64,000 nt of DNA, taken from assembly GCF_056746865.1 (NCBI RefSeq), contig NZ_CM163382.1; one strand, 5' to 3'. A program made the translations under genes and the position numbers. A model generated the notes under the pieces. That model searched no databases, was not told the DNA's origin, and saw only the letters and a list, made by a program, of their open reading frames with translations. Positions 31,589 to 45,891 of this stretch are shown piece after piece (the stretch's first letter is position 1; every line of letters starts with the position of its first letter).

Positions 31589-34500
31589 ATGTTGTGGGGT
31601 TTTGTTTTTGTATCTTTTATCTCTAAGGAGCTTGCTTTGGGTCAATCAGAATACATTTCATGGGTAAAATGTACTTCCTGGCTAAGTAACTTTGTGAATC
31701 TTAGAGGGTTGAGACAACCGGATGGCCGTCCTCTTTATGAATATCATGCAACCAATGATGAATATACCCAATTAACGCAGCTACTCCGTGCAGTCGGTCA
31801 ATCACAATCTAATATATGTAATAGGGACTTTGCTGCCTGTTTTGTTCTTTTTTGCTCTGAGTGGTACCGCAGGGATTATGAACGGCAATGCGGATGGACG
31901 TGGGACCCTATATATAAAAAAATAGGGATTTCATTCACCGCCACAGAGCTTGGTACTATCGTACCGAAAGGGATGGAAGATTACTGGCTGCGCCCAATTC
32001 GATTTTATGAATCTGAACGACGCAATTTTCTCGGAACATTATTCAGTGAAGGTGGTTTACCTTTCCGGCTACTCAAAGAATCAGACAGTCGCTTTCTGGC
32101 TGTTTTCTCCAGGATCCTTGGACAATATGAGCAAGCAAAGCAGTCAGGTTTTTCTGCCCTTTCGCTGGCAAGAGCTGTCATAGAAAAATCAGCGCTGCCA
32201 ACTGTTTTTAGCGAAGATACCTCTGTAGAACTTATCAGTCATATGGCTGATAACCTCAATTCCTTAGTACTTACTCACAACCTAATAAATCACAAAGAAC
32301 CAGTACAACAGCTTGAGAAGGTTCACCCTACCTGGCGAAGCGAGTTTCCAATACCGTTAGATGATGAAACAGGAACGCATTTTTTGAATGGACTGCTATG
32401 CGCAGCCTCTGTAGAGGCTAAGCCTCGACTACAAAAAAATAAGAGTACGCGTTGCCAATTCTATTGGTCAGAAAAGCATCCAGATGAGCTTAGGGTGATA
32501 GTATCTCTTCCGGACGAAGTTTCCTTTCCTGTAACAAGCGAGCCGTCAACTACGCGCTTTGAACTTGCCATTTGTGAAGATGGTGAGGAAGTCTCTGGCC
32601 TTGGGCCAGCCTATGCTTCTCTGGAAAACAGACAGGCAACAGTTCGATTACGTAAAAGCGAAGTGAGATTTGGCAGGCAAAATCCATCGGCAGGTTTGTC
32701 GTTAGTGGCTCGTGCTGGAGGGATGATTGTTGGGAGCATTAAACTTGATGACAGTGAAATTGCCATTGGTGAGGTGCCGTTAACCTTCATCGTTGATGCA
32801 GATCAATGGCTGTTACAGGGACAGGCTTCTTGCAGTGTGCGAAGCAGCGATGTTCTGATTGTGCTCCCTCGGGATAATAGCAATGTTGCTGGTTTTGATG
32901 GCCAATCGAGGGCAGTAAACGTATTAGGACTAAAAGCACTACCTGTGAAGGGATGTCAGGACGTTACAGTTACAGCAAATGAAACTTATCGGATTCGCAC
33001 CGGAAGAGAACAAATCAGCATCGGAAGGTTTGCTCTAAATGGAAAGCGTGCAAGCTGGGTTTGTCATCCAGATGAAACATTTATTGGTGTACCAAAAGTC
33101 ATTTCTACACTACCGGATATTCAAAGCATTGATGTAACGCGTTACCTGAGCGGAATTTCAATTGAGCAATGTCATATACAAGAGATGCTGGGGGCTCAAT
33201 ATCTTTCTATCCGTAATAGTAAGAATGAAACGCTCTTGCGTCGCAAAATCGGTATTTTGCCTGCTGATTTCAGTATTGAGATAAAAGGTGGAATACACGC
33301 AAATGAAGGCACTATCGTAATCACCACACAGCATCCTTGTGTAGCAAAACTTAAAGATAAAACATTGGAGGCTACACGTAAGCGTACTGAGGGGCGAACA
33401 GAGATACAACTCAAAGCGGAAGGGGTACCTCCGGCATTTATTACATTACAAGTTCTGCCTAATTTGGCGGCTGACCCCATCGATATTGAGTTACCTTTTC
33501 CCGCTAAAGGCTGTCTCGCTCTTGATGTAAACGGACGTCCTCTGGATAAAAACATTACGCTGCATGATCTGCTGGGTTCCAGAGCGTTTCTGTTCTCCAG
33601 AAATGGCGAGCCGACAAGATATACATTGCAGTTGCATTTGCGCTCCGTTAGTGGATTACAGGCATGGCACGAATGGTGTTATACGGCGTTGAGCGATCGT
33701 CCTGTTGAATTGAATCTCTATAGTCTGCGCGAACATATTGAGAACCTGATTTCACTTGAGGCAGGTATTGACCAGGTTGTTGAGATGCGTATTACGGGGG
33801 CGGGTGTGGTCATGGCCTGGCAAATTCGTCGCTATAAATACAGTCTGCGCTATGATTATGAAAAAGAACTATTACTCAGCCAGTCAGTGAACCATCGTGC
33901 TGGACAGATTCCTTCCCCCGTTATCATGCTGTTAAGTGAACCCGAGAGGAAATCCATCCCCTTAGCATCAAGAATGAGCGAGGGAGTGCCTGTCGGTGAA
34001 TATGAGTTGAGCTCAATCGTTAACAAAAATGGACCGTGGTTGGTTGTCCCTAAACCGGGTGAAGAGATGGCTTTTCGTCCCTGCTTCATTCGTGGCGAAT
34101 CTTCGTTACCGGTAGAAGAAAGCAACATCCGCTCATTGCAGAAAGCGACCCAGCTTTTTAATCCACAGGCAGAAGTTAATACCATCACACTGGTTCTCGG
34201 ACAGATGGCTAACGATCCTGCCCATTCCGGCTGGCAATTTATGCGTAGCCTGTACGATCAATTTGGTTATTTACCACTGGCAACCTTTGAAGTATGGCGT
34301 GCACTGGTGCAGCATCCGCAGGCATTGGCAATGTCGCTCTTCAAATTTGAAATGTCAGCAGAGTACCTGAGTCGTATTGAGAATGAGTTCCCTATTCTAT
34401 GGGAGTTTTTCCCCATCTTTGAGATCAAAGCGGCATCTGAGCGTTTCAAATTGTTCCTGAGCCAAAAAGGTGCACCGGAGGAAACCCAGAAATTACTGGT

Positions 34501-34927
34501 TACTAATATGTTTCAACGGCTGGGGCTCGTGTTCCCGACATATGCCGATGAAATTGAGAAATGGTTAAGTAACGGACATCTCCCCCCGTCTATTCCTGAG
34601 TCTTTTGTCCACGTGTGGTATCAGGAGCTTTTACGTGAGCATAGTGAAGCTCAATGGCCAGAGTACGGCAGCAAGCGGCTGCATAGCTGGATGGCATCAC
34701 AAAAAAATCCAGTGATTGGTATTAATCCTGACGCAAATCACCGCTATTCCGTGGCCTTGTTACCCGTCTTCGCTGCAGCTGTGGCAAGCGGAAATGCTTC
34801 TTTTGAATCTGTATTTGACCGTAAACCCGGTGCCGTATTTTTCCTGAGGCAAGTCAGGGATTTCGATTCCCGCTGGTTTAAGGCCATCTTCCAGTGCAGC
34901 CTGTTGCGTTATGTTGCTAAAAAATAA
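31589..34927 (+). CDS. Large protein of unknown function (up to 1112 aa), first gene of a two-gene candidate defence operon; DruH-like by architecture
   Basis: Long uninterrupted ORF ending 12 bp before the helicase gene. No P-loop, nuclease or methylase motif recognised by eye. Coding sequence is visibly AT-richer than its neighbours. An alternative TTG start at 31637 has an AAGGAG RBS 6 nt upstream. From memory this corresponds to a full-length version of the yjiT fragment of K-12. Confidence 0.75.
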   Translation: MLWGFVFVSFISKELALGQSEYISWVKCTSWLSNFVNLRGLRQPDGRPLYEYHATNDEYTQLTQLLRAVGQSQSNICNRDFAACFVLFCSEWYRRDYERQCGWTWDPIYKKIGISFTATELGTIVPKGMEDYWLRPIRFYESERRNFLGTLFSEGGLPFRLLKESDSRFLAVFSRILGQYEQAKQSGFSALSLARAVIEKSALPTVFSEDTSVELISHMADNLNSLVLTHNLINHKEPVQQLEKVHPTWRSEFPIPLDDETGTHFLNGLLCAASVEAKPRLQKNKSTRCQFYWSEKHPDELRVIVSLPDEVSFPVTSEPSTTRFELAICEDGEEVSGLGPAYASLENRQATVRLRKSEVRFGRQNPSAGLSLVARAGGMIVGSIKLDDSEIAIGEVPLTFIVDADQWLLQGQASCSVRSSDVLIVLPRDNSNVAGFDGQSRAVNVLGLKALPVKGCQDVTVTANETYRIRTGREQISIGRFALNGKRASWVCHPDETFIGVPKVISTLPDIQSIDVTRYLSGISIEQCHIQEMLGAQYLSIRNSKNETLLRRKIGILPADFSIEIKGGIHANEGTIVITTQHPCVAKLKDKTLEATRKRTEGRTEIQLKAEGVPPAFITLQVLPNLAADPIDIELPFPAKGCLALDVNGRPLDKNITLHDLLGSRAFLFSRNGEPTRYTLQLHLRSVSGLQAWHEWCYTALSDRPVELNLYSLREHIENLISLEAGIDQVVEMRITGAGVVMAWQIRRYKYSLRYDYEKELLLSQSVNHRAGQIPSPVIMLLSEPERKSIPLASRMSEGVPVGEYELSSIVNKNGPWLVVPKPGEEMAFRPCFIRGESSLPVEESNIRSLQKATQLFNPQAEVNTITLVLGQMANDPAHSGWQFMRSLYDQFGYLPLATFEVWRALVQHPQALAMSLFKFEMSAEYLSRIENEFPILWEFFPIFEIKAASERFKLFLSQKGAPEETQKLLVTNMFQRLGLVFPTYADEIEKWLSNGHLPPSIPESFVHVWYQELLREHSEAQWPEYGSKRLHSWMASQKNPVIGINPDANHRYSVALLPVFAAAVASGNASFESVFDRKPGAVFFLRQVRDFDSRWFKAIFQCSLLRYVAKK

Positions 34928-34939
34928 AAAGGAATAAGG

Positions 34940-37900
34940 ATGACTACACGCTATTTTTCGTCACTTATTGAACAATCGTTGTCTCGTTCAACTGAAGCAA
35001 CGCTCAGTATCATGGGCGTTACCAACCCGCAGCTGCGTGAACATCTCGCGCAACAAATGGGGGCTGATTGTGGGAAACCGGGCTCATTCCTTGCTTCTCC
35101 GGTATTCCAGCAAATGTTTGGCTGGAAGGAGTCAAACCACACGATGCGCAGCCTGACGGAAGGCAACGCATTGTTGAGCAAAGCAGTGGTTGATTCACTG
35201 GATGATCAGAATAATGGCCGGTACCGGTTTGGTGCTGACTGGAGGCCTTTTACGCACCAGTTAGCCAGTTGGAAAGCTTTGCTGGAAAAGAAACATTCAG
35301 TGGTGGTAACCAGTGGTACGGGTTCAGGTAAAACGGAATGTTTTATGGTACCGGTGCTGGAAGATCTTTACCGGGAACTGCATGAAAATGGCAACAATCC
35401 GTTGGTCGGTGTCCGAGCCCTTTTTCTCTATCCATTGAACGCCCTGATTAATTCACAGCGCGAGCGTCTGGATGCCTGGACGCGTGGTTTTGGTACAGGG
35501 ATCCGCTACTGCCTTTACAACGGCAACACCGAAAACCTACACGCTTCGGTAAAAAGCGAACAGGCAAAAAGGCCGAATGAGGTGCTCTCGCGCGAAAAAA
35601 TGCGTGAAGAACCTGCGCCGATTCTGGTGACCAACGGCACGATGCTGGAATATATGATGGTTCGCCAGGTCGACGCCCCGATTATCCAGCAATCTAAAGC
35701 ACAAAAATCACTACGCTGGATTGTACTGGATGAAGCGCATACCTATGTAGGGTCGCAGGCCGCTGAACTGGCGCTCCAGCTGCGTCGTGTGATGACCGCG
35801 TTTGGCGTGACACCAGATGACGTGCGCTTTGTCGCGACCTCTGCGACCATTGCCGGCAGCGACGCTGAAAAGCAGCTGAAAAAATTTCTCTCTGAATTAT
35901 CCGGTATCCCGCAGGAGCGCATCGATGTTCTGGACGGAAGTCGGGTGATTCCTGAACTGGAACCATCCAAAAACGTTTCTGTTCCGTTAGACGAGATAGA
36001 GCAAATACCTGATCTGGATCTAAGAGATAAAAATGATAATAAAATTAAAGGGATAAGTCCTGAGCGCTTTTATGCGCTTACGCATTCCCCCGAAGCGCGT
36101 TACATACGTGAGATGTTGGTCAAACAGCCCAATCCGATGAAGCTGGATGAGATAACAGAGCGGTTACACGTGCTGACAAAACAGCATTACAGCCAGCAGG
36201 AAGTACTGCGTTGGATCGATGTCTGTTCAGGGACTCAACCTAATGCAAAGGATCCCGCATTTCTTAAAGTCAGGGCGCATATCTTCCAGCGTAATACCCA
36301 GGGAATATGGGCTTGTGTTGATAAAGATTGCAGATTAAAGCACGGTACACCGCTCGACAAAGGCTGGCCCTTTGGCTATGTGTATGTGAACCAGCGACAA
36401 AATTGTGACTGTGGAAGCCCTGTATACGAAGTTGCATTCTGTAATGATTGTAATGAGCCTCATCTTCTGGCACGGGACAAAAAGGGCAAACTAGTCCAGT
36501 GGGAAAATAAAGGTGGCGATGAATTCTCTTTGCAGGATGAAGTACCTGTTGAACATGACGCTACAGAAGAAAAAGTCGAAAAAGAGAACAGTTTTCAGCC
36601 TCCGTTGATTATTGCCGCAGGAGAGACCAGCGAGGCAGGTTATACCCTACAACGCCTCGACCGTCAGACGCGCCGTATTGGCGTTATTAACAATGACAGC
36701 ATTCCGCTGATTATTAATGATATTGAACAGGTTTGTAGTGCCAGTGGCTGTGGCTACAGAGGCATGAGTGGGAAACAGCCCTTCCGGCGTGCACTATTAG
36801 GTGGGCCATTTTACGTTACTAATATCGTGCCCACCGTTCTAGAGTATTGTCAGGACTTTACCAGTGATGAAGGCAAAGAGGGCGTCGGACCAGATTCGTT
36901 GCCAGGACGAGGTCGTCGACTCATCACCTTTACAGACAGTCGACAAGGGACAGCCCGAATGGCGGTGCGTATGCAGCAAGAAGCAGAACGCAGTCGCTTA
37001 CGCGGAAGCGTAGTCGAAATTCTCAGCTGGCATCAAAGGACGCAAACGTCTACAGCGCCGAATGCCAATGCCGATCTGGAAAAATTAGCGGCCAGGGCGA
37101 AGCAAGCCCGTGAGCAGGCAGAAGAATATCGAAGCTGGGGAATGCCAGACCAGGCGAAATTGTCACAAGCACAGGCTGAACAGCTTGAACAGGCTTATCA
37201 GGCTGCAACCGGTGGGAAAGCTGCGACTATCCTGGTATCCCGAACCTGGACGGAGATGGTTAACGAGCTTAAAGAGAGAGCCGATATCCGCGGGCCGGTT
37301 CTGCAATATAACCATTATCTTAAGCCTGAAGTGTTTAATGAAAACGGCGGCCCCCTTAAGCTTTCTGAAATGTTGTTGTTCCGGGAATTCATGCGTCGCC
37401 CTAAACGGACTAACAGCCTGGAAACACAGGGGCTGGTTCAGGTTGGTTACCAGGGGCTGGAGAAAATACATAAGAGCCCCTTGCACTGGCAGGAAAAAGG
37501 ATTAACGCTGGATGACTGGCGCGATTTTCTCAAGGTTACGTTGGATCATTACGTTCGCGAGAGCAACTTCACACAGCTGGATGATGAGCTGAAAAACTGG
37601 ATTGGTAGCCGTTTTTCATCAAAATTCGTCCGTAACCCGGAATCAAAAGATCCTGAAGATAATCAGAACAGACGCTGGCCTCAAATTCGTAATGGCAACG
37701 TATCCCATCGTTTAGCGAAGTTGCTGATGCTGGGGGCTGGATTCAAAACCGTCAATGCGGCAACTATTGATATTATCAATACATGGCTGAAAGAAGCATG
37801 GGCCCAACTTACCGGACCGCTTGCAGTACTGAAACCCGATGGCAACCGTTTTTATTTACCGAAAGAGCATATGACTTTTTCTTTAATCACGGATGCCTGG

Positions 37901-40900
37901 ATTTGCCCGGTAACCAATAAAATCCTGGATACGGCTTTTAAAGGCTTAACCCCTTATCTGCCTACCCATATTTCGTTCGAGCATCTTACCCTGGCGCAAT
38001 ATGACACTTTTGTCGCGCAGAAAGTCACAATGCCGGAAATCTGGAAGCTGGATCGTTCACAGGAAGACTACGCAGAGGGTCTGGCAAAAGCACGCGACTG
38101 GGTCAGCCATGATCCGCTGATCGCACAATTGCGGTCGGAAAACGTCTGGACAGACATTAACGATCGTGTCGTGGAAGGCGGCTTCTACTATCGTACTGCC
38201 GAGCACTCTGCCCAGCAGTCGTCAGAACGTCTGCAAAGCTATGAAAAGATGTTCAAGAATGGGCAACTAAATGTTCTCAACTGTTCCACCACCATGGAAA
38301 TGGGGGTTGATATCGGGGGTATTACTGCGGTGGTAATGAACAACGTACCGCCACATCCGGCCAACTATTTACAGCGCGCCGGGCGAGCCGGGCGTAGTAA
38401 AGAATCACGCGCGATCTCTTACACCCTATGTAAAGGTAACCCACACGACCAGCAGGTTTTTGCCAACCCGCTCTGGCCATTTGAAACCATGATCCCGGCA
38501 CCCATGGTCGCGATGAACTCCGCCCGACTGGTGCAACGTCACGTCAATGCATTATTACTGTCCGACTTTTTATGTAACGTTATTGGCGAAACCGATAAAG
38601 AAAAAACCAGCCTCGATAGCCTCTGGTTTTTCGGTGAAGATGACGGGCAGTCAAAATGCGAACGCTTTAAAATCTGGCTGGAACGTCCGGTTCTTGATAT
38701 CGACACGGCGCTGGAACGGCTGGTGAAAGGTACGGCGTTGCATGGTGCAAGAGCCGAATATCTGCGGGATAAAACAATCAACGCGATCACCTTCCTGCAA
38801 CAGCGGTGGCTCTCCGTTTATCGCGATCTCGTGACACAGGAGCGTGAGTCGCAGCCGCAAACGCCTTATCGTAAGCGCATAGAGCTGGAGAAGAAACGGC
38901 ACTGTGGCGAGTATCTGCTGCGCGATCTGGCTGCCAGAACCTTCCTGCCGGGATACGGTTTCCCGACAGATGTAGTGACGTTTGATAACTTCACGATGGA
39001 AGATTATATCCGCGAAAAATCGCAGAAAAGTCGTGATAAAAAGGACCGTGAAGATAACGTTTCCCGTTATAAAGGATTACCTTCCCGTAACCTCGGTGTT
39101 GCCATTCGTGAATATGCACCGGGAGCAGAGATCATCCTTGATGGCCGTGTCTTCCGCTCTGCCGGTGTCTCACTGCACTGGCACAACATTAATGCTGATA
39201 CCAATGAAGCCCAGCGTCTGGATTGCGCCTGGCGCTGTCACAAATGCGGGACCATTGGCTATGAAGAGGGGATGAGCAGTTCCGGGATGCTCTTTTGCTC
39301 CAATAGCGCCTGCGGCGAAAAAATAATCATGGATAATCGCCGTCAGGTGCTGCAGCCTGCCGGGTTTGTCACCGATGCACACGCTCCGGTAACGAACAAT
39401 ATTGAAACCATGAAATTCGTCCCGGTTGTCCCCGCGTGGGTCTTTGTTAAAGCAGAGCCCGTACCGTTGCCTAACCCGCTAATGGGTTATATGGCTTCTG
39501 GGGCTGATGGGCATGTTTTCCAGCAAAGTTTGGGGGAAGGTGGACACGGTTATGCATTGTGTCTGAGCTGTGGCCGTGCTGAGTCGATGCTGAATGAAAA
39601 TGATGCGCCGAAAAGTATGGAAGCTCACTATCCACCGCGTCCGGGTAAAGCGGATCGCGACAGCCAGAATCATCGTCTGATTTGCCCCGGTTCGACGGCA
39701 CTCATGAAGAATGTCACCCTGGGCGCACTGGCGCGTACCGATGTCTTTGAAATGGTTCTGCGCAAACCGCAAAACGGCGAGTATCTGCCAGATAACACAG
39801 AGGAGGGGCGGATTGTTGCCATGACTCTGGCGGTTGCTCTGCGTCAGGCGCTGGCGGGCGTTCTGGGTATCTCCGCCGCAGAACTCGGCTATTCTGTACG
39901 TCCGGTCAGACTGGAGGATGGGCAATCGGTATTAGCCGTACAGCTTTATGATGTGATCAGCGGTGGTGCAGGTTTTGCCTCCAGCGCACCGGTACACATT
40001 GAAGCTATATTGCAGGGAATGGTGAAACAGTTAGGCTGCCGCCATTGTGAGACTGCATGTAGTGAATGCCTGCTTGATTCCCAGACTCGCCACGATCACG
40101 ATTTGCTGGATCGCAAAGCGGCGCTGGCCTGGCTTGGCGATGACTTCACGTATTACATCGGTTTACCGGATGAAGAGACATTCTCGCTGCCGGATGCCCG
40201 CTACTGCCCTGGCGCCATTGGCGATACGATTCGCCGGGCGATTAACGAAGGCGCTGAAAAGCTCACCCTGTGGATGACCGGCGCGCCCAATGAGTGGGAT
40301 TTATACGCACGTCAGTTCCGCGCGGCGGTTCAGAACTATCGGCTAAAAGACAACGTCGAGGTCGATCTTGTTATTCCTACGGGAGTGGATGACCCGGACC
40401 TGTTGCATGAACTATCGCAATTTACTGCGCTGGGTGTGCGGCTGTGCCATGTTGAACAGGATCTGCAATTACCGATCGTTGCCCAGGTCACCTTTACCGA
40501 TCGCGTGATGACGCTGGCCTCTCGCAGCCAGCAGGCAACGATTCCGGGGCCGGAGTGGCACCTGAATGACGAACTGGTGGTGCGTAGTCTCGGTTATAAA
40601 ACGGTAGAACTGAACGAGTTTATTCTGCCGGCTAAAGCCACCAACGCTGTCGAGCGGGTCAAAGACATTCAGATCCACAAACAGTTGAATGGACCACTGT
40701 CGCAGTTTGGGCAACGCTTCTGGGACGTGCTGTTTAACGACCATGAAGAAGCGCAGTCACTGATGAATAACACGCGAATTACCGGCGTTCACTATACCGA
40801 TCGCTATCTGCAAAACCCGGTTGCGCTGGCGTTGTTGGGATCAATTCTGAGACCGCTAAAAACAAAGCTGACCGATGGCGCTGAAGTGACGCTGGATACG

Positions 40901-41284
40901 CTATTTAAAGATAAAGATCGCCCCGGTAACCGGCCTTTCCATGACTGGATGAGCATAGCGGATTTTCAGGATTTCGCTGATCAGTGGTTTGCTGCTGCGC
41001 TGGGCAGGCCGGTAGAACTGACGGTGTTCGACTCGCCGCGCGATATCCCTCACCATCGTAAACTGACGGTGACTTTTGAGGATGGTCAGGTATTGAAGAT
41101 CCGCTTCGATCAGGGGATGGGCTACTGGCGCATCAACTTTTCATCGCAATGGCATTACTTTGATTTCCGCGATGACGTTTCTTTCCAGTTAGTCAAAATG
41201 GCTCAGGCCTGCAAGGAAGGGAATGTCGCCAACAGCGAAGAGAGTTGGGCAACGGATGTGCTGGTGGAGGTGATCGCCTCCTGA
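34940..41284 (+). CDS. Giant (2114 aa) superfamily-2 DEAH-box helicase with Zn-ribbon / DUF1998-like Cys clusters; DruE-like by architecture
   Basis: ATG at 34940 with AAGGA RBS. Walker A GTGSGKTE (35315-35338), motif II IVLDEAH (35720-35740), motif [10 protein letters not shown] (38372-38395), Cys clusters CAWRCHKCG (39224-39247) and [11 protein letters not shown] (40037-40069). Operonic with the upstream 1112-aa gene. Confidence 0.85.
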
Positions 41285-41291
41285 TGATGAG

Positions 41292-41326
41292 CCGCTCCCG
41301 ATGTGGTGTCGGGAGCGGTATTTTCT
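41292..41326 (+). terminator. Rho-independent terminator of the two-gene operon
   Basis: CCGCTCCCGA-TGTGGTG-TCGGGAGCGG hairpin directly followed by TATTTTCT, 8 bp after the helicase stop codon; placed between the convergent helicase gene and mcrC. Confidence 0.7.
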
Positions 41327-41340
41327 ATAAAACTTACCGC

Positions 41341-42387
41341 TTATTTGAGATATTCATCGAAAATGTCGAGTAATTCTTGATGTATACACGGCCATTCCTG
41401 ACCTAAATTGACGGTACACAAGCCAATATCGAAGCCATTAATTTTATAACGATGTTTCACTGCGGTATCTACGTGGGGATATATTAATAATCCCCCTATG
41501 TTTTCGCCATTTTCAGGCTTTAACGACCATAAGTAATTCATCAGTTGATAAAGATTTTGCGAATGAAATTTTTCTGTTCCCATTCGTCGTGAAAAAATGC
41601 TCTTATAGTATTTGGCGTCAACGATAAGTATTTTTTCTGATGAGCGAATGGTGATGTCAGTTTCCATTCGAGGTAACAAATTAAGTGACTGATCCGATAT
41701 ACTCGATGCATCCCATTTTAAATAAGAGCGGGTTGTGTTTGCAGACGTTAATTCACGACGGCAAAATTCATAAAGAAACTTTTGATAAAGTAATGACATC
41801 TCTTTTTCGTTTCTTTCAAAATCATAGAAACGGTAGTGTCCTTTGTTTTGACCTGGAATAGAATTATTGACGATGAATTTGCAGACACTGATAACGAATT
41901 TATAATAACGCGTATTTTTTCCGCCATTCAGATAGCTGAAATGCTGCGGAGTTAAATGAAGAGTGCTAATGCCCGGTAATTTTCTATAAAGTGAACGAGC
42001 TTCATCTCTGATAGTTGAATTTAACTTTTCATGCTTAATTAATATGGCTAATGTGCTTTTTATAATTCGGTTAGCCAGCGTGTCTTCATTAAGCATATCA
42101 AAAGTACTGACGGTTTTCCCATGATTAAGATGGAAGCCGCGTATTGTTTTAGCAAACTCTATTCGCCCTTTGATGCCAGGAATGATCTCGGTATTAGGAT
42201 TGTAATCAAGCTCAAGCCCTCGGCGTGAAAGCTGTAAAACCCCTTTATTTAATACATACCCCAGGATATCAAGAAGATTGTTACCGGGTATGGCTTCAAG
42301 GTTTGCCTGCTTAATTTCCTGTAAATAACCCCATGCATAGGTAAGCATGTAATAGATATTACGGACAGGTATCACGGGCTGTTCCAC
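41341..42387 (-). CDS. mcrC: 5-methylcytosine-specific restriction enzyme McrBC, endonuclease subunit McrC
   Basis: 348 aa from a GTG start (VEQPVIPVRNIYYMLTYAWGYLQ...) sharing 1 nt with the mcrB stop codon; the track ORF extends 10 codons upstream to an ATG at 42417. Confidence 0.85.
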   Translation of the reverse strand: MEQPVIPVRNIYYMLTYAWGYLQEIKQANLEAIPGNNLLDILGYVLNKGVLQLSRRGLELDYNPNTEIIPGIKGRIEFAKTIRGFHLNHGKTVSTFDMLNEDTLANRIIKSTLAILIKHEKLNSTIRDEARSLYRKLPGISTLHLTPQHFSYLNGGKNTRYYKFVISVCKFIVNNSIPGQNKGHYRFYDFERNEKEMSLLYQKFLYEFCRRELTSANTTRSYLKWDASSISDQSLNLLPRMETDITIRSSEKILIVDAKYYKSIFSRRMGTEKFHSQNLYQLMNYLWSLKPENGENIGGLLIYPHVDTAVKHRYKINGFDIGLCTVNLGQEWPCIHQELLDIFDEYLK

Positions 42388-43766
42388 TATGAGTCCCCTA
42401 ATAATTTGTTGGTCCATTTCTGTTGTTTATAGGGGTCATCAAAGAAATATTCTTCGAGTAAAGGGGCGATATCCGTCATCACAATTTCATTAAGCCATTG
42501 CGTATCCGGAGAGGTGCCATCTTCCAACCCACAGCAGAAGTAACTATGCCCAATGCGGAATCCTTTCCCAAGGATAGTGGCCTCTTTGCTGATTTCCTGG
42601 TTCAACTCGTTCATTTTTTGGCATAAAGACTCAACAAATGAAGGTTCTGCTTTTTTATTCAGTAAAAAATTCCGGAACTGTGGTGTATCAAAACCTGGCT
42701 CAATATCTATGAAAGAAAATCGTCTGCGTAGGGCATAGTCAACAACGGCCAGAGAGCGATCGGCAGTATTCATTAAACCGATGATATAAACATTCTCCGG
42801 GACATAGAATCGTTCTTCATCGTTTTCGGAGTAGGTTAGGGGAACAGACCAGTTTTCACCTCGTTTATCATGTTCCATTAACATCATCACTTCGCCAAAT
42901 ACTTTACTGAGATTGGCACGATTGATTTCATCTATAATAAAAATATACTTTTTCTCTGGCTGCTCTTTAGCTTGCTGACAAAAATTGTAAAATATGCCGT
43001 CTTTACGTCGGAAGCCGACGCCATTCGGACGATAGCCCTGTATAAAATCCTCATAGCTATAGGATTGATGGAACTGAACCATATTGACGCGTTGCGGAGC
43101 CTTTTCTCCTGTCAGCAAGTAAGCCAGACGGCGTGCAACAAAGGTTTTTCCAACGCCGGGCGGCCCCTGGAGGATAATATTTTTTTTGATGGTTAATCGT
43201 TTGAGTATCGTCTCTATTGTGGTTTCAGGGATAAACAAATCATTTAACGCATCTTCCAGACAGTATGATTCAGTTTTTGACATAGGTGGAATAACACTCT
43301 TGCCAGAATTAAATATTAATTTATAGTCGTTGATTATGTTGTCCAGCATAGAGGCAAATCGGGTGTAATCAATACCCTGTGAGACTTTTTGGGAACAGGC
43401 GTAATAGGACTGTCCGTATTTTTTAGGATATACACCCGAAGTTGCCTGAAAATACTCTGCGATTGTTTTAGGTATGTCTGAAGAGAACTGCCATTGGGCA
43501 TGTGGTTCATTCGTGTCGCTTATACCATAAGCCAAAACCAACTCATCAAAATCTTTATAATAGAGAATAACGGGATATATACCGTTAGAAGCTTCCTGAC
43601 CTTCTCCAAGAAATGCAAACCAGGGAATAGACGTAAAATTACCATAACCGAAACTCAATTTTACTCGCAGGTTACGGTAAGACGTTGGATAATCTTTAGT
43701 GGATTGCGAACGTTGTTGCTGTGCTTGCTTAATAAATTTTTCAATCCAGGGTTGAATAGATTCCAT
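42387..43766 (-). CDS. mcrB: 5-methylcytosine-specific restriction enzyme McrBC, GTPase/DNA-binding subunit McrB (AAA+)
   Basis: 459 aa from MESIQPWIEKFIKQAQQQRSQ; Walker A GPPGVGKT and AAA+ motifs; markedly AT-rich coding sequence. Confidence 0.9.
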   Translation of the reverse strand: MESIQPWIEKFIKQAQQQRSQSTKDYPTSYRNLRVKLSFGYGNFTSIPWFAFLGEGQEASNGIYPVILYYKDFDELVLAYGISDTNEPHAQWQFSSDIPKTIAEYFQATSGVYPKKYGQSYYACSQKVSQGIDYTRFASMLDNIINDYKLIFNSGKSVIPPMSKTESYCLEDALNDLFIPETTIETILKRLTIKKNIILQGPPGVGKTFVARRLAYLLTGEKAPQRVNMVQFHQSYSYEDFIQGYRPNGVGFRRKDGIFYNFCQQAKEQPEKKYIFIIDEINRANLSKVFGEVMMLMEHDKRGENWSVPLTYSENDEERFYVPENVYIIGLMNTADRSLAVVDYALRRRFSFIDIEPGFDTPQFRNFLLNKKAEPSFVESLCQKMNELNQEISKEATILGKGFRIGHSYFCCGLEDGTSPDTQWLNEIVMTDIAPLLEEYFFDDPYKQQKWTNKLLGDS

Positions 43767-43927
43767 AAGATATGCCTTCCTCATTGCTAAGCCTCTATTA
43801 TCGCTTTCGCAACGTACTGAAACAATAGATTTTTACTGCAAAATCAGACTGGTAAATATTTACTGAGGGGGAAAGTTTCTATTGAGTCAGTGGAAGGCTC
43901 CCGGTGGTTAACCGGGAGTAAACGCTG

Positions 43928-44269
43928 TTACGCGACTTTCTGTTTACCGGCAATCACTCCAATAAACGCCTGCACCTGCTTTTGTTTACGCGCCGACAGT
44001 TTGCACACCTGGCGTAGCGACTGCATCAGTTCGCTCTCCTCGGCGGCGGGTGGTTGGGCGGTGAGGACAATACAGCCTTCCATCACTTTGACATCTACCG
44101 CCGTGCCAGTGGCAAAACCGGCGGCTTCCAGCCACTGACCTTTCAGGGTGATGGCGGGAATACGGCTGTAATCCGGGTAGCGACTCGCATAACCGACGGT
44201 GACATGACGGTTATTTGCCGGGGAGACTTCTGCTTCGAACGGTTGTGCAATAGAATGCGTGTCAGTCAT
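43928..44269 (-). CDS. symE: SOS-induced toxin-like protein SymE (type I toxin-antitoxin, AbrB-fold)
   Basis: 113 aa from [34 protein letters not shown]; located between mcrB and hsdS; the track ORF is extended upstream. Confidence 0.8.
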
Positions 44270-44338
44270 AACTGCTATTCTCCAGGAATAGTGATTGTGA
44301 TTAGCGATGCGGGTGTGTTGGCGCACATCCGCACCGCG
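44262..44338 (+). ncRNA. symR: Candidate antisense sRNA SymR (RyjC) overlapping the symE 5' end; coordinates approximate
   Basis: Established knowledge that a roughly 77-nt cis-antisense RNA overlaps the symE ribosome-binding site and start codon. The exact ends cannot be fixed from sequence; a 9-bp stem hairpin at 44309-44332 lies within the region. Confidence 0.25.
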
Positions 44339-44346
44339 CTAAATAC

Positions 44347-44496: not shown

Positions 44497-45891
44497 TCAG
44501 GATTTTTTACGTGAGGCTTTTTTACCCCCGCTAGCTGCGCGTTCAGCTTTGATTTTTTCCAGCAACGCGGCGGCGCTGTTTTCTCCGCTGATCAAATCCG
44601 GGTTTTCGGCCCGCCACTGGGCGGTAAGTTCACCACGGAACGCTTTTGCCAGGATGGATTGCGTCAGGTTGTTGACGCGGGCTAAGGCGTTGTTGACCTG
44701 TTTTTCTATGGTGTCGGCGTAGGCGAAGAGTTGCTCGACGCGGCGAACGATTTCGGCTTGTTCTTTTACTGGAGGTAATAAAACAACTTGGGATTTGATA
44801 TCTTTTCCTGAAATACCTTTTTGACCAGAAGTTGTTTTCACGCAGTTCATCATTGCATTTCGTGCTGAGGGGGATGAAAAAAATATTTCGATATATTCTG
44901 GTAAAGCATCTTTGGTTAATCGAGCTCGAATAAGTTTATCAGGATATAGCAAATTTTGATGTTGTAATTTTTTCAATAACCCACAAACACCAACAAATTC
45001 TAAACTTCCGTTATAGCGAGTAAATAAAAGATCTCCATCTTGTAATTTGTGGCGGTTTAGTTCACTTTCTGAACATTCTAGAAACCGAATATCGTTTTGA
45101 TCTACATGGCCAGCACGTACAGAACTAATGCGTAGTATTGGATGACCAACACCACTTTCATTTGGCTTTGATGAAAGACCATTACGTAATTCAGTTAAGA
45201 TAGATTCAAAATTTAACTTCTTAAATACAGAATGTTGCGGCTCAAAATTACGCCATTTTTCTGTCAATTTTCCATTAACTGCGCCCCCCAATACCGCTTG
45301 ACGAAAACGTTTCAGGATTTGTGGGATTTGCTCAAAACGTGCTTTGGTGCTGTCTACCTGCGCCAGCAGCGTATCGAGTTTTTCAGCGATGATTTTTTGT
45401 TCGGCAAGTGGTGGGATTGGTATATTTATCAAATCAAAGCTTGCCGGCTTAATATTATTAATATTTGCACCAGCAGAAAGTGATGAAATTTTGTTTCGAT
45501 AAAGAGAAGATTTTGTGAAATGAGCAATAAAACCAGAAAATATAAGTTTTTCAGGACGTAATACACCGCAAAATGCGCCGAAACTACATTCAAATGGTAG
45601 ATGCTGATGTGCGGATTTACCAACTACGGATTTGCTCCCTGATGACATTGCAATAACAATATCTTCAGGAGATATTTTTTGATTTTCTTTAACAAGATTT
45701 TTAGGAACAAAAACCAAGTCCGTAGTATCAAACTTGCCATTCTGAATATTGTTCGCACGGATAAGAGGCAAATAATCATCTTTTAGATAATTTATTGCCT
45801 GCTCTTTTTTATACGTTACTCCTCGGATTAGAGTTGTGACCGTAGATACTGGGGCGATAACCCACCCCTCCGGCAATTTCCCCGCACTCAT
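44497..45891 (-). CDS. hsdS: Type I restriction-modification specificity subunit HsdS
   Basis: 464 aa with two target-recognition domains separated and followed by conserved helical repeats; start ATG overlaps the hsdM stop (ATGA). The N-terminus MSAGKLPEGWVIAPVSTV is consistent with the EcoKI-family HsdS as I recall it. Confidence 0.88.
   Translation of the reverse strand: MSAGKLPEGWVIAPVSTVTTLIRGVTYKKEQAINYLKDDYLPLIRANNIQNGKFDTTDLVFVPKNLVKENQKISPEDIVIAMSSGSKSVVGKSAHQHLPFECSFGAFCGVLRPEKLIFSGFIAHFTKSSLYRNKISSLSAGANINNIKPASFDLINIPIPPLAEQKIIAEKLDTLLAQVDSTKARFEQIPQILKRFRQAVLGGAVNGKLTEKWRNFEPQHSVFKKLNFESILTELRNGLSSKPNESGVGHPILRISSVRAGHVDQNDIRFLECSESELNRHKLQDGDLLFTRYNGSLEFVGVCGLLKKLQHQNLLYPDKLIRARLTKDALPEYIEIFFSSPSARNAMMNCVKTTSGQKGISGKDIKSQVVLLPPVKEQAEIVRRVEQLFAYADTIEKQVNNALARVNNLTQSILAKAFRGELTAQWRAENPDLISGENSAAALLEKIKAERAASGGKKASRKKS

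Follow-up and report, generated by a model that had tools for sequence, protein, structure and literature searches.

The mcrB gene of a non-K-12 Escherichia coli strain and the internal start codon of its short product, McrB-S

In Escherichia coli K-12, the mcrB gene (UniProt P15005) yields two products, McrB-L of 51 kDa and McrB-S of 33 kDa. An internal in-frame start for the shorter one, which a preliminary description of the locus studied here had taken for established, is indeed documented (PMC2993543, PMC3874153, PMC12707154). McrB-S lacks the N-terminal 161 residues of the protein (PMC2993543), the part to which DNA binding has been assigned (PMC3874153). According to the literature, it retains GTP binding, ring formation and McrC binding, and has lost the ability to bind DNA (PMC3874153, PMC12707154). 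The GTP-dependent cleavage of DNA that contains RmC sites is established for the K-12 McrB protein, which is identical to the one described below (PMC2993543, PMC12707154).

We examined a stretch of 64,000 nucleotides from a non-K-12 strain (contig NZ_CM163382.1, assembly GCF_056746865.1), hereafter the window, to which all positions refer unless another locus is named. As in K-12, mcrB lies between mcrC and the genes symE, hsdSMR and mrr, and the two strains also agree in the internal ATG and the sequence around it. Apart from a single synonymous base change, mcrB itself does not differ between the two strains, and the 459-residue translation is 100% identical to the K-12 protein WP_000443951.1. 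The difference lies downstream of mcrC, where the yjiT and yjiV-like genes are intact in the window strain but are pseudogenes in K-12. The window is colinear with strain EF5-18-41, with 1 mismatch in 20.65 kb. The coding sequence at 9185-10564 of both the K-12 MG1655 and the EF5-18-41 loci (L001 and L002, respectively) corresponds to window positions 43766-42387, and RefSeq places mcrB at exactly 42387-43766 on the minus strand.

The mcrBC genes and their products

The McrB protein matched the NCBIfam equivalog NF008457 over residues 1-459 of 459 with 1106 bits (cut-off 637). It consists of an N-terminal DNA-binding domain (Pfam MrcB_N, residues 20-101, 28.8 bits for a cut-off of 25) followed by an AAA+ NTPase domain (AAA_5, 111.7 bits). 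The Walker A motif GPPGVGKT at residue 201, DEINR at 279 and MNTADRS at 332 are invariant in an alignment of 26 sequences, and residues 1-459 of the full-length protein are covered by PDB entries 6ut6 and 7vsr. McrC was recognised by both Pfam McrBC (96 bits) and NCBIfam NF007277 (452 bits). The coordinates of the genes and of the signals discussed below are collected in Table 1.

Table 1. Features of the mcrBC region, in window coordinates
Feature	Position	Strand	Remarks
mcrB coding sequence, full-length McrB-L	42387..43766	minus	459 aa, calculated 53.2 kDa
Shine-Dalgarno (SD) sequence GAGGAAGG of the McrB-L start	43775..43782	minus	ATG at 43766-43764
Codons 1-161, N-terminal methylcytosine-DNA-binding domain	43284..43766	minus	McrB-L only
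ATG of Met140	43347..43349	minus	SD +0.3 kcal/mol; product 320 aa, 37.1 kDa
Promoter-like site TGGACA-16-TAAATT	43318..43345	minus	Between Met140 and Met162; consensus scan, 9/12 matches
Pure A/T tract TATAAATTAATATTTAATT	43307..43325	minus	19 nt, upstream of the weak SD
Weak SD-like AAGAG	43297..43301	minus	−18 to −14, 13 nt upstream of the Met162 ATG
ATG of Met162, McrB-S start codon	43281..43283	minus	In PPMSKTESY
McrB-S frame, AAA+ GTPase domain without DNA-binding domain	42387..43283	minus	298 aa, calculated 34.7 kDa
Walker A GPPGVGKT, residues 201-208	43143..43166	minus	Common to both isoforms
SD GGGG of mcrC	42395-42398	minus	−6.4 kcal/mol
mcrC	41341..42387	minus	348 aa, GTG start; 1-nt overlap with the mcrB TAG stop; RefSeq annotation

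The expression scenario that fits these features is dual. Ribosomes loading at the ATG at 43766, which is preceded by the strong SD sequence GAGGAAGG, would produce McrB-L with its 5-methylcytosine DNA-binding domain and its AAA+ GTPase domain. Independent initiation at the in-frame ATG at 43283 (Met162), in the linker between the domains, would produce McrB-S, which consists of the AAA+ part only. Because McrB-S binds McrC but not DNA, it titrates McrC and in this way tunes the restriction activity, according to the literature. Through translational coupling, ribosomes translating either isoform probably also promote the synthesis of McrC, a step that we infer; the 1-nt overlap of the two genes is kept in orthologs.

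Met162 as the start of McrB-S

The preliminary description had named two candidate internal Met codons without deciding between them, and both of the peptides it quoted are present, FASMLDNI containing Met140 and PPMSKTESY containing Met162. The second candidate is the right one: McrB-S begins at Met162 because the N-terminal 161 residues are missing from it, and no other codon agrees with such a loss. Other records point to it too. The UniRef/nr entry Q47375, a "33kD protein (put.)", begins with MSKTESY. The McrBΔN construct comprises residues 162-460 (PMC6344862). In the solved structures the domain split coincides with Met162, PDB 3ssc and related entries covering residues 1-163 and the chain in 6hz4 residues 162-459; McrB-S also matches positions 162-459 of the NF008457 profile. 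Finally, the calculated mass ratio of McrB-S to McrB-L (34.7/53.2) is 0.65, as is that of the reported masses (33/51 kDa). It should be stressed that Met162 is assigned on the strength of experiments in the literature (Ross 1989, Beary 1997 and Panne 1998, which we know through reviews) and not on computation.

Indeed, sequence scores do not single out this codon, and the preliminary description was justified in holding that the start could not be pinpointed from sequence alone. Each of the 68 ATG, GTG and TTG codons in the mcrB span received a score for anti-SD pairing and one for 60-nt local folding energy, and RNAplfold-type unpaired probabilities were computed for start accessibility. The strongest anti-SD duplex in the span is formed by GAGGAAGG (−8.5 kcal/mol), and TAAGGAG precedes the aligned ATG in McrB orthologs too. 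At Met162 the SD pairing was −2.7 kcal/mol, the best among the internal ATGs and the 28th percentile of all 68 start-like codons, while the predicted local accessibility was about median. We therefore rejected a call of Met162 from these scores, as neither anti-SD pairing and folding nor unpaired probability distinguished the site. The AU content between −50 and −1 of Met162 reaches 70%, joint highest among the internal ATGs, and the A/T tract TATAAATTAATATTTAATT is a possible AU-rich initiation enhancer. Lack of an RBS-like context at every internal Met had been put forward as an argument against a short product; this criterion is weak, because the accepted Met162 codon itself has only a poor and distantly spaced SD. 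For the same reason, the weakness of that SD, scoring by SD strength and accessibility would miss the functional internal start of mcrB, which calls for caution in sequence-only prediction. The gene is absent from the start-site tables of TRAINSPOTTER and INRI-seq. A mention of "mcrB" in a Ribo-RET preprint was discarded as a record of the gene, since it refers to mrcB (PBP1b): the text cites Broome-Smith 1985 and the figure legend reads mrcB. The names mcrB and mrcB are mixed up in two preprints.

Could the short product arise in another way? One scenario keeps Met162 as the start codon and changes the message, McrB-S being translated from a shorter mRNA of its own, which would start at an internal promoter some 26-28 nt before the Met162 codon, instead of by internal ribosome loading on the mcrBC mRNA. 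A promoter-like site with 9/12 matches does lie on the sense strand between Met140 and Met162, a short leader would account for the use of a poorly SD-backed ATG, and intragenic promoters are frequent in AT-rich, horizontally acquired genes. However, chance alone would give 8.0±3.4 promoter-like sites in the region, which holds 8, and the literature consistently gives an internal translational start; we consider a separate transcript improbable. Still less probable is a start at Met140 or at the TTG of codon 177 (43238). Both codons are in frame, Met140 is kept in the 86%-identical ortholog, where Met162 is not, and TTG177 surpasses Met162 slightly in SD pairing (−3.3 kcal/mol) and would give a product of 33.0 kDa, numerically the nearest to the reported 33 kDa. 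Yet TTG is a poor initiator, and Met140, the first of the two candidates named earlier, has no SD and would remove 139 residues instead of the reported 161. That reported loss, the MSKTESY beginning of Q47375 and the apparent mass ratio all agree with Met162 and speak against both codons. Least likely of all, and only very faintly credible, is a proteolytic origin of the 33-kDa species by cleavage of McrB-L in the flexible interdomain linker: Met162 does have a weak SD and lies in a poorly conserved, length-variable linker between independently folding domains, of a kind typically sensitive to proteases, but the first residue of a fragment would hardly be expected to coincide with a Met codon, the SD is strengthened in one E. 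coli allele that retains Met162, and the published work, in its title and in summaries of it, is presented as showing two independent translational initiation sites.

Altogether, nothing contradicts the canonical explanation of mcrB with a Met162 start, and we are nearly certain that the gene is the ordinary E. coli mcrB of McrBC, a modification-dependent, GTP-driven type IV restriction system, its McrB-S start at Met162 included.

Distribution of the internal start and origin of the cassette

We then considered how widely the internal start is shared. Within E. coli, Met162 was present in all five alleles read besides that of the window (95-100% identical), and so was an SD-like element. Over the 110 nt around the internal start, 577 of 588 genomes showed 99% identity or more. 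Three diverged alleles carried 0, 1 and 0 differences in nt 420-540, against about 3-5 expected. In allele E7-1N7, the spot of the weak SD reads GAGAGGG (−6.3 kcal/mol), and there are 7 differences around the internal start. We make no claim of purifying selection on the start site, because the lineages are not independent and because of these 7 differences in E7-1N7. A cluster of 298-residue proteins starting with MSKTESY (P0013, 214 members) was considered as an independent annotation of McrB-S and rejected; its start call is a contig-end artefact, since every contig in it starts only 66 nt before this ATG.

Outside E. coli the picture is different. The Enterobacteriaceae orthologs P0002 (86% identical), P0005 (72%), P0011 (69%, named from Enterobacter hormaechei) and P0021 (54%, named from Klebsiella pneumoniae) resemble the window McrB in their MrcB_N and AAA_5 domains, in the overlap of the mcrB stop with mcrC and in a GC content of 32-42%. 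In none of these four, however, does a Met align with Met162, nor does the linker of any of them contain an in-frame ATG, GTG or TTG that is backed by an SD. The 86%-identical ortholog lies in the same gene order, hsdS-mcrB-mcrC-yjiV, yet its interdomain linker is free of in-frame starts, as are the linkers of at least four distant enterobacterial orthologs. Orthologs of this kind may make no McrB-S, because they have neither Met162 nor an SD-backed linker start. From this comparison, the McrB-S start may have arisen recently within the E. coli lineage instead of being common to McrB proteins in general, a proposal for which we see the balance as even. If it is true, most McrBC systems would run without a built-in isoform that titrates McrC, and the change of one codon within a variable linker would have given E. 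coli a further level of self-regulation. Since close orthologs lack the start, the regulation of McrBC stoichiometry could be a subject for a modest comparative study.

The base composition of the locus bears on its origin. The GC content is 40.4% for mcrB and 37.2% for mcrC, the lowest of the 46 ORFs, in a window of 50.1% whose other 44 ORFs have 51.6±4.5%; the two genes thus deviate by about −2.5 and −3.2 SD, respectively. The preliminary description had called them much AT-richer than the surrounding genes, which holds against the flanking helicase gene (51.2%) and hsdM (55.2%) but not against hsdS, two genes away beyond symE, whose GC content (40.4%) equals that of mcrB. Its further suggestion of a horizontally acquired signature fits the atypical composition as well as the distribution of the cassette, which only 598 of 5426 complete E. 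coli genomes carry, each time as one chromosomal copy. It also fits the position of mcrBC in the "immigration control region", a variable defence island (PMC12707154), and the surroundings of the McrB orthologs, which have 32-42% GC and lie in unrelated defence-island contexts (BREX brxL, TIR, TraI). That mcrBC is so low in GC is a mark of its nature as a mobile defence cassette of this variable island, the immigration control region.

McrB-S among other nested gene products

Both the dual products of mcrB and the low GC content of mcrBC are already known, from literature dating back to 1989-1990. As a discovery the present result carries little weight, McrB-S being a standard example of internal initiation in bacteria. 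Its use lies in annotation, where McrB-S belongs at 42387-43283 on the minus strand, starting at Met162 and not at Met140. Similar arrangements are found elsewhere in E. coli. In infB (IF2α/β), clpB (93/79 kDa) and mrcB (PBP1b), as in mcrB, one ORF gives two nested products by means of a second ribosome entry site, and the short forms, like McrB-S, lack an N-terminal domain and modulate or complement the long form. Unlike the short forms of infB, clpB and mrcB, McrB-S has lost a whole DNA-recognition domain and acts as a titrator of a partner nuclease, McrC.

The mcrB gene and the start of McrB-S

The mcrB open reading frame (ORF) encodes 459 residues identical to K-12 WP_000443951.1, with a single, synonymous difference at the DNA level. 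RefSeq places the gene at 9185-10564 of both the K-12 MG1655 locus (L001) and the EF5-18-41 locus (L002), which is exactly window 43766-42387. The protein scored 1106 bits against the NCBIfam equivalog NF008457 (cut-off 637) and matched the Pfam domains MrcB_N and AAA_5 and the full-length McrB structures 6ut6 and 7vsr in the PDB. ORF calling lengthens the gene by six codons (MRKAYL-) to an upstream ATG at 43784, and the protein database includes the resulting 465-aa version (P0001, with 1497 members). This ATG has its own Shine-Dalgarno (SD)-like AGAGG (−5.8 kcal/mol), weaker than the strong SD of the annotated McrB-L start (GAGGAAGG, −8.5 kcal/mol). The annotated start is kept in orthologs, where the extension is missing or broken by stop codons.

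Features of the mcrBC region, with base composition (± standard deviation)
Feature	Position	Strand	GC (%)	GC3 (%)	Remarks
mcrB	42387-43766	minus	40.4	39.9	1380-nt ORF; sequence and RefSeq
mcrC	42387-41341	minus	37.2		348 aa, GTG start, 1-base overlap with mcrB TAG stop; lowest GC among 46 ORFs of at least 120 aa
Six-codon extension	43764-43784	minus
Met140 ATG	43349-43347	minus			in-frame; quoted in the preliminary description
TGGACA-16-TAAATT	43345-43318				promoter-like
TTGCCA-16-TATAGT	43300-43327	plus			antisense promoter-like, 10/12 matches
A/T tract	43325-43307	minus			19 nt
Met162 ATG	43283-43281	minus			in-frame; quoted in the preliminary description
symE	43928-44269	minus			toxin gene, between hsdS and mcrB
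SymR	44264-44340	plus			antisense RNA; Rfam RF01809, 95 bits (gathering score 61)
hsdS	44497-45891	minus	40.4	31.6
yjiT and helicase gene	31589-41284	plus
Hairpin	41291-41319				strong, terminator-like
Whole window			50.1
44 other ORFs			51.6 ± 4.5	55.9 ± 10.3

Two products of mcrB are described, McrB-L (51 kDa) and McrB-S (33 kDa), the latter lacking the 161 N-terminal residues of McrB-L and otherwise identical to it (PMC2993543, PMC3874153, PMC12707154, PMC12602166). McrB-S starts at Met162, because this alone among the nine in-frame internal ATGs fits the loss of 161 residues. A protein search returned the UniRef/nr entry Q47375, '33kD protein (put.)', which starts MSKTESYCLEDALNDL and further along carries apparent old frameshift-type sequencing errors. 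Together with the reviews, this entry supports the internal in-frame start put forward in the preliminary description. Of the two candidates named there, Met162, within PPMSKTESY, stands and Met140 does not. In the PDB, entries for the DNA-binding domain span residues 1-163, and those for the AAA+ domain, 6hz4 among them, start at 162; the McrBΔN construct likewise covers residues 162-460 (PMC6344862). The calculated masses, 53.2 and 34.7 kDa, stand in a ratio of 0.65, as do the reported ones. Met140, in turn, has no SD (+0.3 kcal/mol) and would give a calculated product of 37.1 kDa. Met162 is present in the alleles of K-12, the B strain, GPEC1292, R32 and E7-1N7. As a feature of mcrB, McrB-S is already known and ordinary.

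Other origins of the short product were considered. A separate McrB-S transcript from the promoter-like TGGACA-16-TAAATT is an alternative of low probability; such sites occur in this AT-rich stretch at the chance rate (8 observed versus 8.0 ± 3.4 expected). On the opposite strand, a promoter-like TTGCCA-16-TATAGT faces the internal start region, and the number of promoter-like sites around it equals chance expectation. A start at Met140 or TTG177 conflicts with both the reported 161-residue difference and the deposited 33-kD sequence, and cleavage of the linker by a protease is at odds with the literature account of independent initiation.

The names mcrB and mrcB are confused in two preprints (10.1101/520783 and 10.1101/511675): the Ribo-RET text has 'mcrB' but cites a PBP1b (mrcB/ponB) paper and labels its figure mrcB, and the Onc112 text has 'MrcB' where its reference, Ross 1989, concerns mcrB. 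The Ribo-RET text is not citable as confirming an internal start in mcrB.

Signals and conservation at Met162

Published experiments and database records, not a computable signal, are what place the start at Met162. Its SD is limited to AAGAG at −18 to −14 (−2.7 kcal/mol), with a long spacing of 13 nt; it is the best among the internal ATGs, yet lies at the 28th percentile of the 68 start-like codons in the gene. The SD of the mcrC GTG is good (−6.4 kcal/mol). Predicted unpaired probability from −15 to +9 of Met162 is near the gene median. The earlier caution that sequence alone cannot fix the start was therefore justified. The sole distinctive feature is a pure A/T tract just upstream of the weak SD, owing to which the −50 to −1 region is 70% AU. 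Tracts of this kind can promote ribosome loading that needs no SD and goes through protein S1, and the one upstream of Met162 may be a loading aid of this type.

In an alignment of McrB with 25 homologs (45-96% identity), the linker (residues about 150-167) was the least conserved stretch of the protein, and none of the 25 had Met in the Met162 column. In its DNA, the 86% ortholog, which shares the hsdM-hsdS-mcrB-mcrC-yjiV synteny, has no in-frame ATG, GTG or TTG from codon 141 to Walker A, and no SD-backed start candidate occurs in the linker of the 72%, 69% and 54% orthologs. The diverged E7-1N7 allele (L011, 2084-3463; differing at 51 nt and 21 aa) retains Met162, with an SD improved to GAGAGGG (−6.3 versus −2.7 kcal/mol); a similar allele occurs in the Logan contigs L008-L010. 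A 110-nt stretch that runs from Met140 to 40 nt beyond Met162 is at least 99% identical in 577/588 genomes, and the 2.65-kb mcrBC query reaches this identity in 434/598. This high identity is taken only as a hint, given that the sampled alleles are not independent and that E7-1N7 departs from the pattern. McrB-S may be new to the E. coli lineage.

Two nested isoforms

The McrB-L and McrB-S frames are nested, with one stop codon in common, and the boundary of the McrB-L-only part lies in the variable interdomain linker. The McrB-S frame keeps Walker A (201-208), Walker B (DEINR at 279) and the MNTADRS signature (332), and contains no part of the DNA-binding domain. According to the literature (including PMC12707154 and PMC3874153), both isoforms bind GTP, assemble into rings and associate with McrC; the ability to bind DNA is absent from McrB-S, which forms complexes with McrC and in this way interferes with or tunes the activity of McrB-L:McrC. 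Overexpressed McrB-S is described in the literature as suppressing T4gt restriction by five orders of magnitude. Since the mcrC start lies within the stop codon of mcrB, an overlap kept in four orthologs, ribosomes ending either isoform could re-initiate on mcrC, which would tie McrC output to total McrB translation. In Panne 1998 and Beary 1997, McrB-S reportedly inhibits cleavage when McrB-L and McrC are at their optimal ratio and relieves the inhibition caused by excess McrC, and is said to be a possible stabiliser of the complex in vivo.

In E. coli CFSAN061770 (L006, 385-2963), mcrB is interrupted after about codon 110 by an IS5 insertion; what remains is an 'MrcB family domain' pseudogene and, upstream of an mcrC that is intact, a separate ORF of 375 aa for an 'AAA family ATPase'. 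This natural strain could make N-terminally truncated McrB only.

Distribution and base composition of mcrBC

A megablast search with 41300-43950 against 5,426 complete E. coli genomes found mcrBC in 598 (11%) at 95-100% identity, without exception chromosomal and in one copy per genome. The gene order (mrr, hsdR, hsdM, hsdS, symE/SymR, mcrB, mcrC, yjiV-like helicase, yjiT) is that of the E. coli immigration control region, described as a variable defence island (PMC12707154). The AT-richness noticed earlier was borne out, mcrB and mcrC deviating from the 44 other ORFs by about −2.5 and −3.2 standard deviations in GC. In a 500-nt profile, GC drops to 36-44% between about 41.5 and 46 kb, a trough broken by a single 48.8% bin over symE (44.0-44.5 kb). 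mcrBC is not alone in its AT-richness, since hsdS equals mcrB in GC; as the adjoining hsdM and hsdR have 54-55% GC, the anomaly is mosaic within the island. Orthologs of mcrB at 54-86% identity are likewise low in GC (32-42%) and adjoin unrelated defence or mobility genes (BREX brxL, a TIR protein, TraI). Patchy distribution, the variable-island locus and these AT-rich orthologs in unrelated contexts support the proposed horizontal acquisition. Two orthologous mcrBC cassettes, even more AT-rich, lie in other defence or mobile contexts, L013 (GC 38%) beside BREX brxL and a PLD/helicase gene and L014 (GC 32%) beside TraI, HNH and TIR-domain genes.

Over positions 32300-52950, the window and EF5-18-41 are colinear, with 1 mismatch across 20.65 kb. 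The helicase gene and mcrC are convergent, the terminator-like hairpin lying between them. Both yjiT (1112 aa) and the 2114-aa DEAD/DEAH helicase (YjiV_N, Helicase_C and MZB/DUF1998-type domains) are intact here and in EF5-18-41, whereas their K-12 counterparts are broken-up pseudogenes.
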